A DNA stretch of 64,000 nucleotides from Candidatus Poribacteria bacterium. Lineage in GTDB: Bacteria > Poribacteria > WGA-4E > WGA-3G. Below, piece after piece: positions 13,839 through 42,317 of the stretch (positions are counted from its first letter, which is position 1; each line of letters opens with the position of its first letter). The stretch is taken from contig OZ243938.1 of the NCBI GenBank assembly GCA_965214095.1, positions 448,001 to 512,000 of the forward strand. Reading direction: 5' to 3'. Position numbers and translations under genes: made by a program. Under the pieces are notes generated by a model that made no database searches, had not been told where the DNA came from, and was given only the letters and a program-made list of their open reading frames with translations.

Positions 13839-14084
13839 TTAGCTGCTTAACTTATTCATTGCAGCAATCATTTCATCATCTGACGGATTGTTTTCTACCA
13901 TCTCAACAAAATCTTCAGCTGAAATATTATGTTCCTCCAGGAACATTTTGTCCTGTGGTCACGGATAAATATATTCTCCGATGATGCCTTGAAGTTTTGC
14001 ATTTGCTTTATCGGATATTCTTGCAAGCCAAGGTATCCCTCCGATTATCATATCTCTGTGACGTGGTTTCCAATCAAGTGACAT
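13839..14084 (-). CDS. DUF5069-like small protein with in-frame UGA (candidate selenoprotein), 81 aa
   Basis: GGAGGTG RBS at 14091-14097 and ATG at 14084. Translation MSLDWKPRHRDMIIGGIPWLARISDKANAKLQGIIGEYIYP-U-PQDKMFLEEHNISAEDFVEMVENNPSDDEMIAAMNKLSS*. TGA at 13959-13961 falls at the Cys of the DUF5069 GEYxYxCPxD motif. Confidence 0.8.
13934..13958 (-). promoter_or_regulatory. Candidate bacterial SECIS hairpin
   Basis: Immediately 3' of the UGA: CCACAGGACAAAAUGUUCCUGGAGG (CAGGA/UCCUG stem, CA/UG upper pairs with a bulged U, CC/GG base). Confidence 0.6.
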
Positions 14085-14145
14085 CTGTTTCACCTCCTTC
14101 TTGAAATGTCAGTGTTCTCTAAACTATACGGGTTGTAAGTTCATA

Positions 14146-14811
14146 TTATGTTTGTGTGCGTAGTCGCTCAATCTCCGCTAAAGCATGAGCAAGTTTTTTC
14201 TCAGCAATTTCAGCGCGTGCTTCAGCAGCATCTACGCGTTCTTGTGGTGGTTGCAACCATTGCGAGCGGTTTGGATCATATAGCCGTAACATGCCTGCAT
14301 GTTCACCTAACTCCAAACCTAAAGTTTCTGAAGGGAGCCGGTCATTCACTGAAGCAATTTCTTGATATTCACCGTCAATCAGTTTATATCCGACAAAACT
14401 CGGTATTATTTGACCCAACGGATCATATATGTAATATTCTTTTACCGACAGAACTGAAGCATAAAGTTCCTTCTTCTCTCCAATATCTTTTGATACAGTC
14501 TTTGGACTTGCTACTTCTAATACAAAATCAGGTGTATTCGCTTCTTCCCATATCAAGAATGTTCGTCTTAGTTTCTTTTCTACACCGAATGCAACGAAAA
14601 CATCAGGTGAGAGACATTTTTTAGGGTTACCTTCAACGTAATACATCAGTATGTTTCCCGATACGTAAACATCTTTATCGTGTTTATAATGGCCTTCAAG
14701 CATTAGGATGAAATCCATCATTAACTTCCGGTGCTGATCGGTTTCAGCCATAGGTTCTCCGTCTGATTCCGGATAGACTATTGTCGGCGCAGCGTGTATT
14801 TTTTTCTGCAT
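14146..14811 (-). CDS. Uma2 family (DUF820) PD-(D/E)XK endonuclease-like protein
   Basis: YPESDGEPMAET, SPDVFV, PDFVLEVASP and VKEYYIYDP motifs. Confidence 0.92.
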   Translation of the reverse strand: MQKKIHAAPTIVYPESDGEPMAETDQHRKLMMDFILMLEGHYKHDKDVYVSGNILMYYVEGNPKKCLSPDVFVAFGVEKKLRRTFLIWEEANTPDFVLEVASPKTVSKDIGEKKELYASVLSVKEYYIYDPLGQIIPSFVGYKLIDGEYQEIASVNDRLPSETLGLELGEHAGMLRLYDPNRSQWLQPPQERVDAAEARAEIAEKKLAHALAEIERLRTQT

Positions 14812-42086: not shown

Positions 42087-42317
42087 TTATATTTTGTCGA
42101 TTGCAGTGGTGATTTGGTCTTCGGATGGGAATTTGCGTTGCTCAAGCTTGGAGAAGAGCAATTCCTCGTTTACATATACTTCAAAAGCACCGCCACTGCT
42201 TTCCACAAGTTTAACTTTCTTCACCTGACCACTATATTTCTTTTCAAGGACTTCTGCCAAACTGGCTGCCCGTGGTTGATAGTTTCAGGAAGTGCAATAC
42301 TCTATTCTAATGTCCAT
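42087..42317 (-). CDS. SelT/SelW/SelH (Rdx) family selenoprotein, CxxU, 76 aa
   Basis: GGAGG RBS and ATG at 42317. Translation MDIRIEYCTS-U-NYQPRAASLAEVLEKKYSGQVKKVKLVESSGGAFEVYVNEELLFSKLEQRKFPSEDQITTAIDKI*, with TGA at 42285-42287. Confidence 0.93.

Follow-up and report, generated by a model that had tools for sequence, protein, structure and literature searches.

The window analysed here, a stretch of 64,000 nucleotides from contig OZ243938.1 of a Candidatus Poribacteria bacterium, contains a short gene whose reading frame is broken by a single TGA and whose product belongs with a protein domain of unknown function, DUF5069. The original prediction, made from the letters alone, had proposed that this hidden gene uses UGA to encode selenocysteine (Sec, U) at a conserved Cys and that it represents a new family of selenoproteins. 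Translation of the window places the gene on the minus strand (Table 1), which the prediction had left unstated; the GGAGGTG, the ATG, the 81 codons and the lone TGA that it described are all present, and the plus-strand frame at 13839-14084 contains many stops and no gene. As the prediction had also held, the product is without any Cys; the conserved Trp residues of the gene are encoded by TGG. The family assignment was borne out by a profile match: with C substituted for U, PF16798 (DUF5069) was the only Pfam family matched by the protein, with an E value of 2.2e-13 and a score of 51 bits (cut-off, 27). Its residues 7-78 align to positions 4-75 of the 133 positions of the profile and the protein ends there; it is a short form of the DUF5069 domain and does not span the whole of it. 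An NCBIfam profile search of the protein returned nothing at E<=1, and an Rfam search of the whole window at gathering thresholds gave no match, and hence none to a bacterial Sec insertion sequence (SECIS).

Table 1. Positions of the DUF5069-type gene, of its features and of other genes named in the text (plain numbers refer to the window)
Feature	Position	Strand	Remarks
Shine-Dalgarno GGAGGTG	14097..14091	minus	6-nt spacer to ATG; direct sequence reading
Coding sequence, predicted 81-residue DUF5069-type selenoprotein	14084..13839	minus	ATG 14084..14082; predicted Sec codon 42; TAA 13841..13839
In-frame UGA, residue 42	13961..13959	minus	context GEYIYP-U-PQD; aligned with the conserved Cys of the YPCPxD motif
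Putative bacterial SECIS-type hairpin	13946..13929	minus	core GUUCC 13944..13940, loop UGGA 13939..13936, GGAAC 13935..13931
Uma2-family (putative restriction endonuclease-like) gene	14146-14811	minus	between the DUF5069-type gene and a UPF0182 gene
SelW-like/Rdx gene	42087-42317	minus	TGA 42287..42285; motif C-T-S-U near the N-terminus
DUF5069 paralog	L150:1974-3254 (= G000:C1:1620813-1622093)	plus	427 residues; three full-length DUF5069 repeats; 271 bits
Three tandem AhpC/TSA genes (L166-L168)	G000:C1:4477030-4479961		each with TGA in a UxxC motif
GMTUxxC-type gene L169	G000:C1:648553-650241		563-residue WD40 protein
GMTUxxC-type gene L170	G000:C1:4077497-4077850		118 residues; HMA domain matched
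GMTUxxC-type gene L171	G000:C1:4078017-4078400
TGA gene L173	G000:C1:2185258-2185950		secreted-looking; W-C-U-G-P motif
TGA gene L176	G000:C1:547945-548286		114 residues; U-N-S-C
Glutaredoxin/disulfide-oxidoreductase fusion gene	L215:961-2361		homologs L139-L144, L199-L227

The in-frame TGA is conserved far beyond this assembly, to which it would be confined if it had arisen there by error. An ortholog with exactly one internal TGA was found in all 61 genomes of the same order (4 families, 8 genera; 59-99% identity) and, at E<=1e-15, an ortholog was detected in 168 of 176 genomes of the phylum Poribacteria. The TGA is present in 160 of these 168, which span 25 genera and come from independent assemblies, and is thus retained down to about 59% identity. 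The remaining eight orthologs are stop-free and come from all the genomes of one family (f8), in which the codon is TGC in seven cases and TGT in one; the alternation of TGA with Cys codons that had been suggested as a check is therefore seen within the phylum. The eight genomes that lack an ortholog comprise two (81% complete) of a genus otherwise positive, three of family f5 and three of families f10 and f11. In DNA fetched for individual loci, the codon is TGA at 133 of the 133 genome-derived loci where the motif was located (sets that share genomes and hold 99 distinct 87-nt sequences); a pattern match in a paralog locus, L147, was spurious and was dropped from the count. A metagenome scan that started from a more distant clade yielded 58 loci, and the motif was located in 53 of them (and not in the other 5), with TGA in 44, TGC in 6, TGT in 2 and CGT in 1. 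TGG was found at the site in none of the 133 genome-derived loci and in none of the 53 metagenomic loci with a located motif.

Homologous proteins point to Cys as the counterpart of the UGA. From a scan of 1.84 billion representative proteins, which gave 226 matches at E<=0.001, the best 150 of the 226 were combined with the hits of an earlier search into an alignment of 180 domain rows from 165 proteins, the query included. Cys stands at the UGA site in 121 of the 179 homolog rows (122 of 180 when the substituted C of the query itself is counted), as the original prediction had supposed in aligning U with a conserved Cys; the other rows carry Ser (23), Trp (12) or another single residue (8), end exactly at P41 (14) or do not cover the site (1). 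A Trp at this position, which had been named as an observation that would speak against Sec, led back to TGA in the one entry that could be traced to DNA. All 12 Trp rows are close orthologs (52-89% identical), mostly from short contigs; entry P0020 is 99% identical to metagenomic locus L177, whose DNA codon is TGA, and entry P0012 shares its sequence context with the TGA-bearing loci L141 and L215. Since the traced entry P0020 matches a TGA codon, the W at this site is apparently a gene call under genetic code 4 and not Trp. Across 69 aligned homologs there is no variation at R22, K26 and C42 and very little at P7, R8, D25 and D45, although the invariance of C42 is partly by construction, the 69 having been picked from Cys-bearing rows. 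Among the database entries, P0002-P0012 and P0020 carry W, whereas P0015-P0018, P0025, P0036 and others are cut at residue 41, including the NCBI-sourced P0015 and P0018, which are both nameless; none shows U. Public calls that stop at the TGA often begin at a spurious upstream start. Triple-repeat DUF5069 proteins of about 430-450 residues, such as the paralog listed in Table 1, are present in most related genomes.

Immediately downstream of the UGA lies a conserved stem-loop, GUUCC-UGGA-GGAAC, which begins 14 nt after the UGA, encodes M-F-L-E-E-H and is lengthened to 7 bp in this sequence by an A-U and a U-A pair (6-7 bp in most lineages). When 97 unique 60-nt stretches of the TGA form were folded jointly with RNAalifold, it was the sole consensus helix, with 5 bp and no broken pairs (pair types GC95/GU1/AU1, UA96/UG1, UA97, CG97 and CG96/UG1). 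The four stem variants among the 97 sequences all still pair (G-U, A-U, U-G and U-G), and within one genus alone the closing pair is G-C (L134), G-U (L135) or A-U (L136, L137). The 7-bp structure was tested on 66 distinct rows, drawn from 33 of the 97 genome-derived sequences, chosen to hold every stem variant, and all 36 unique metagenomic ones. In this alignment 87.7% of cells are paired, compared with 79.2% in shuffles, and covariation is 0.206, compared with 0.084 in shuffles; none of 500 shuffles reached as high a value and controls slid along the alignment gave at most 0.082. The closing pair is GC55/CG7/AU1/GU1 over the 66 rows. The original prediction had drawn a different, overlapping stem, CAGGA...UCCUG. 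That stem is indeed the lowest-energy fold of the one sequence (-8.2 kcal/mol), but it is unconserved: over 66 distinct orthologous sequences 64.7% of its cells are paired, against 64.6% in shuffles, its covariation is 0.011, and some 60% of the sequences break three of the pairs. The GUUCC is the 5' arm of the conserved hairpin and not the 3' arm of the stem that had been drawn, such that the expectation of a conserved hairpin held while its identity did not.

Nei-Gojobori proportions, calculated for all pairs of 10 diverse orthologs, gave synonymous differences (pS) of 0.83 in codons 1-41, 0.91 in codons 43-46 and 0.73 in codons 52-80, with ratios of nonsynonymous to synonymous proportions (pN/pS) of 0.18, 0.23 and 0.32, respectively; in codons 47-51, which form the hairpin, pS was 0.008 and the ratio is not meaningful. 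Silent sites are thus frozen in the hairpin, and elsewhere the gene shows protein-type evolution both before and after the TGA. The element recurs in the metagenomes: a hairpin of 5-7 bp, starting 15-17 nt from the U of the UGA, is present in every one of the 44 metagenomic TGA forms, and 42 of the 44 carry the UUCC-UGGA-GGAA core (GGGA in L186), with C-G in place of G-C as the closing pair in one clade. The 12-nt core UUCCUGGAGGAA is nearly invariant across clades whose proteins are only about 45-50% identical. By contrast with the TGA forms, the 14-nt block is absent from all eight genome-derived Cys orthologs, in which the E-E residues are gone as well (FLEK, FLER, FLQR, WLQK and so on), and among the eight metagenomic Cys forms a hairpin occurs at that offset only in L211 (6 bp, with G-U pairs) and weakly in L209 (4 bp). 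The element would provide a clean natural example of a SECIS constraining protein sequence, with the E-E dipeptide kept only where the UGA is kept.

Published rules for bacterial SECIS elements (bSECIS) call for a loop of 3-9 nt, a stem of 4-16 bp, a minimum free energy of at most -7.5 kcal/mol, a G at loop position 1 or 2 with G or U after it, and 16-37 nt between the UGA and the loop (PMC13188914, Fig. 2 legend). With its 4-nt loop U-G-G-A, its stem of 5-7 bp, its distance of 19 nt from UGA to loop and its -7.9 kcal/mol in the 7-bp form, the UGGA-loop hairpin falls within these rules, although it lies at the small end of the allowed range.

The genome itself (5.25 Mb, 94% complete) encodes the means to insert Sec. 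We found SelA (538.8 bits), a tRNA-Sec gene (78.1 bits) directly adjoining a gene with the SelB wing domain (71.7 bits; near position 4989200 of G000:C1), and SelD (AIRS domains), which has an in-frame TGA of its own; all four of the selA/selB/selC/selD genes that the original prediction had listed for checking are therefore in the genome, and an absence of Sec machinery, which would have spoken against that prediction, is not what we found. TGA is an ordinary stop in this genome, closing 446 of 2226 open frames of >=300 codons. The CxxU Rdx gene that had been noticed in the same window has one TGA, matches PF10262 with 77 bits and belongs to a known selenoprotein family. Seven other TGA genes have hairpins that start 17-19 nt from the U of the UGA and have a 3-nt loop (GUU, GGA, GGU or GUC); on the same count the hairpin of the DUF5069-type gene starts at 17 nt. 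In the Cys-form family f8, SelA is present in seven of eight genomes and the missing one is 61% complete; this family has not lost the Sec trait. All three genomes of family f5, of the same class (G064-G066; 76-95% complete), are without a SelA match (E<=1e-20) and without a DUF5069 ortholog, and this lineage may have lost the use of Sec.

We observe a conserved UGA, the pairing of Cys and Sec at one site, a hairpin that is conserved and covaries, the Sec machinery and purifying selection after the UGA. From these we infer that the UGA at 13961..13959 is very probably decoded as Sec through the GUUCC/GGAAC hairpin. In such a mechanism the in-frame stem-loop GUUCC-UGGA-GGAAC would act as a bacterial SECIS element and be bound by SelB, loaded with Sec-tRNA(Sec), when the UGA is in the ribosomal A site, and codon 42 of the 81-residue DUF5069-fold protein would be read as Sec; the peptide F-L-E-E would be fixed because the SECIS element lies inside the reading frame. 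Several observations pull in the other direction. The hairpin is small, its 5-bp core having only -5.7 kcal/mol, its first loop base is U and not G, a competing pairing is the minimum-free-energy fold of the window's sequence, and the region folds no better than shuffles (z -0.65; 48 of 200 fold as well). In L195 and L197, which belong to the 44 metagenomic TGA forms, a different hairpin occupies this position, and the loop of L195, CUUGA, is without G in its first two positions; the hairpin of the Cys form L211 indicates that such a structure can arise without a UGA. The Ser found at the site in 23 of 180 rows, and at all three sites of the genome's own triple-repeat paralog, means that the residue is not universally needed in the fold. 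Finally, contigs from RNA libraries that cover the gene attest to presence in the libraries only, may include DNA, and cannot show translation.

Other explanations of the TGA fare considerably worse. If translation stopped at the UGA, releasing a 41-residue peptide, the GGAGG in the loop and 3' arm, a strong Shine-Dalgarno-like word, might restart a separate downstream peptide, and public gene calls do end at P41. We regard this as very improbable: no start codon stands at a conserved 5-10 nt after the GGAGG in the aligned sequences, the hairpin arms covary (G-C, C-G, A-U) in a way that a Shine-Dalgarno site would not need, L195 and L197 keep the TGA and a hairpin and have no GGAGG, Cys orthologs run without interruption into the same C-terminal half, and the 3omd_A fold (see below) spans both halves. 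A reading of the UGA as Trp, or as some other standard residue, by an altered code or near-cognate read-through draws its appeal from the W in 12 database proteins. It is hard to credit in a genome in which TGA closes about a fifth of long open frames (446/2226) and in which the gene's own conserved Trp is TGG; moreover, no located ortholog has TGG at the site, the W-bearing P0020 corresponds to TGA in L177, the homologs carry Cys and not Trp, and the hairpin tracks the TGA. A pseudogene or an assembly error has nothing more in its favor than the in-frame stop itself and can practically be discounted, given the same TGA in 160 genomes of 25 genera from independent assemblies and in metagenomes, purifying selection after the TGA (pN/pS 0.32, codons 52-80) and its retention in RNA-library contigs.

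A different kind of challenge is that the family is genuine but already described under another name, such as the hypothetical protein GOS_A, which would make the present finding a rediscovery. GOS_A resembles the family studied here, compared by description, in that it is a selenoprotein candidate from marine metagenomes, has many Cys homologs and had been assigned no domain in 2008; its source gives 2 Sec sequences and 155 Cys homologs, without a conserved domain (PMC2398784). GOS_A was not carried into the 2026 catalogue (PMC13188914), and the DUF5069-type gene is common in metagenomes (44 TGA loci in one scan). DUF5069 was added to Pfam only after 2008. We nevertheless consider a rediscovery unlikely. 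Neither DUF5069 nor PF16798 is mentioned in the full texts searched, and PF16798 is absent from Table 1 of a 2026 review, which gives 119 prokaryotic selenoprotein families with model identifiers (PMC13188914), in a comparison of NF/TIGR and Pfam models that did not search cd and PTHR models directly. Because no NCBIfam profile matches the protein at E<=1, every NF/TIGR-defined family in that table is excluded, GOS_B and GOS_C included, and P0015 and P0018, which come from NCBI, are unnamed entries cut off at the TGA. Elsewhere in the literature, the accessible portions of the deep-Sep (PMC12013277) and BSepDB (PMC13326102) papers contain nothing related to DUF5069, a search on '3OMD' returned only papers on 3-O-methyldopa, one combining selenoproteins with Poribacteria returned NiFe hydrogenase work only, as far as the retrieved portions extend, and one combining selenocysteine with sponge symbionts returned none about selenoproteomes by title or abstract. 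The original prediction's view that DUF5069 is not a described selenoprotein family thus agrees with the catalogue and the searched texts, with GOS_A set against it by description only.

Taken together, the DUF5069-type gene apparently represents a genuine, uncatalogued selenoprotein family that would use the standard bacterial Sec machinery. The listed families DUF3179, DUF166, DUF1573, DUF1858 and DUF523 (PMC13188914) stand on the same kind of evidence, namely a UGA, Cys homologs, a downstream stem-loop and a Sec-utilising genome. They differ from the present family in fold and relationship, and the support for DUF5069 is broader than that for some of them (160 genomes, several metagenomic clades); DUF523, for example, is listed without a TGA homolog in other organisms (PMC12013277). 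One consequence is that public annotation of the gene would be systematically wrong, being either cut at residue 41 or furnished with a false Trp.

The evolutionary history of the site was examined in a maximum-likelihood tree of 155 rows and 83 columns with the Sec/Cys site masked, which is rooted only at its midpoint and has many unresolved forks. The tree requires 5 Sec/Cys changes, and well-supported branches force at least 3 of them; its Cys forms adjoin or fall inside Sec clades. Near-intact remnants of the hairpin block are found in the Cys forms L190 and L152, which suggests, from sequence, a Sec-to-Cys direction in these two cases. On balance, we somewhat favor the view that short DUF5069 is an old, uncatalogued Sec family, borne by nearly all Poribacteria and by two or more other marine metagenomic clades, in which Sec would be catalytic and would predate several switches to Cys, and in which the core UUCCUGGAGGAA would dictate F-L-E-E throughout.

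The gene is represented in RNA libraries. Contigs from four RNA-library runs cover it with 90-99% likeness and no difference is listed at 13959-13961; one contig of 509 nt spans 13848-14272. The four runs carry three study codes, and X3 and X4 appear to be a single data set deposited twice, which leaves at least two studies; the shares of words in the RNA runs were 0.17-0.29. At 13927-13967 of the window the assembly of two metatranscriptome runs breaks into short, high-depth contigs over the UGA-hairpin block, probably through many co-occurring strains that share these roughly 41 nt and differ on both sides.

To consider what the residue might do, we turned to structure. An AlphaFold2 model of the protein with C at residue 42 (predicted local distance difference test score, 92.7) consists of a short beta-hairpin and four helices, with residue 42 immediately before helix 43-51. 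The model superposes on 3omd_A with a template modeling score of 0.86, normalised to the query, and a root mean square deviation of 1.1 over 74 columns. PDB 3omd, an uncharacterized protein of Leptospirillum rubarum, is the only solved member of PF16798 and is matched by the 69-homolog profile with an E value of 1.9e-39; it shares the motif R..DK...G.Y.YxCPxD with the protein studied here, and U42 falls on its Cys. The protein studied here differs from 3omd and from PF16798 at large in having Sec for Cys and 81 residues, without the C-terminal half of the domain. A Foldseek search of the PDB at E<=0.001 returned nothing besides 3omd_A, and hence no functional lead from the fold.

Sec is used almost only at catalytic redox or at metal- or chalcogen-binding positions, and because of this the Cys of YPCPxD is nominated as the active-site residue of what has been a domain of unknown function. 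Since Sec would replace the one conserved Cys of the family and no other Cys is present in the protein, we propose that the Sec of Y-P-C/U-P-x-D may form a single-selenol redox or transfer center that would be recycled by an external thiol system. We lean modestly towards such a one-selenol redox or chalcogen-transfer function, on the basis of general knowledge of Sec, the position at a helix start, the lack of a second Cys and a neighboring gene in family f4. Against it, the functional reading leans on general selenoprotein knowledge together with one lineage-specific neighbor, and the residue may instead bind a metal or metalloid or have another role. The neighbor in question is a fusion of glutaredoxin and a pyridine-nucleotide-disulfide-oxidoreductase, which lies directly upstream in family f4 only (15 of 130 loci with enough flank) and provides a weak hint of function. 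Roughly 25-30 nt separate the end of the fusion gene from the start of the DUF5069-type gene on the same strand, and a dodecin-domain gene lies further upstream of it in that Poribacteria family.

Comparison with other proteins adds two points. In longer Cys homologs the domain is joined to an AI-2E transporter, a methyltransferase, cupins (2), a dienelactone hydrolase or DUF2249, partners that fit a small accessory or sensing module better than one fixed pathway. Sulfur carriers of the TusA/SirA type have their Cys at a helix N-terminus in a C-P-x-P motif. The family studied here resembles them in its lone conserved Cys followed by Pro at a helix start, and the Cys homolog P0053 is fused to DUF2249, which we take to be TusA-like; it is unlike them in that no sequence or fold match was found, the Foldseek search of the PDB included. 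If the assignment is correct, Sec would mark the catalytic residue of a non-thioredoxin fold, the protein may be a new one-selenol redox or chalcogen-transfer protein, and the prokaryotic selenoproteome would gain a family in a fold unrelated to thioredoxin.

As for the other neighbors of the gene, pheA (chorismate mutase/prephenate dehydratase) follows it in 32 of 37 examined loci, Cys forms included. We dropped pheA as a functional link and read it as lineage synteny because it does not adjoin the gene in two other metagenomic clades, where the neighbors are an SBP_bac_5 protein, an HDOD/HD response regulator and an unassigned 415-residue protein. The Uma2-family gene looks like a recent insertion, since among the 37 loci compared it is present at this genome's locus only.

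The genome contains additional TGA genes, and these indicate a sizeable selenoproteome in Poribacteria. A scan for in-frame TGAs flanked by coding-like sequence added about 12 candidates with classic motifs, the majority from known selenoprotein families. The ten that were scanned against Pfam comprise four AhpC/TSA proteins, SelD, a thioredoxin-like protein, an HMA-domain protein (L170), a WD40 protein (L169), a protein with a weak F5/8 type C match (L173; E 8.5e-06, below the cut-off) and one unmatched (L176, no Pfam match). In L169 the C-terminal GMTUSAC segment looks HMA-like, and HMA was not among the 25 families listed for it. Like L169 and L170, L171 carries a GMTUxxC-type metal-binding motif. 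Further TGA-containing AhpC/TSA genes (L165, L174) lie elsewhere than the tandem cluster of Table 1, of which L168 was assigned without a Pfam scan. The hairpins of the three tandem genes are near-identical (CAACUC-GGA/GGU/GUU-GAGUUG), and two of these genes have N-terminal carboxypeptidase-regulatory-like domains.

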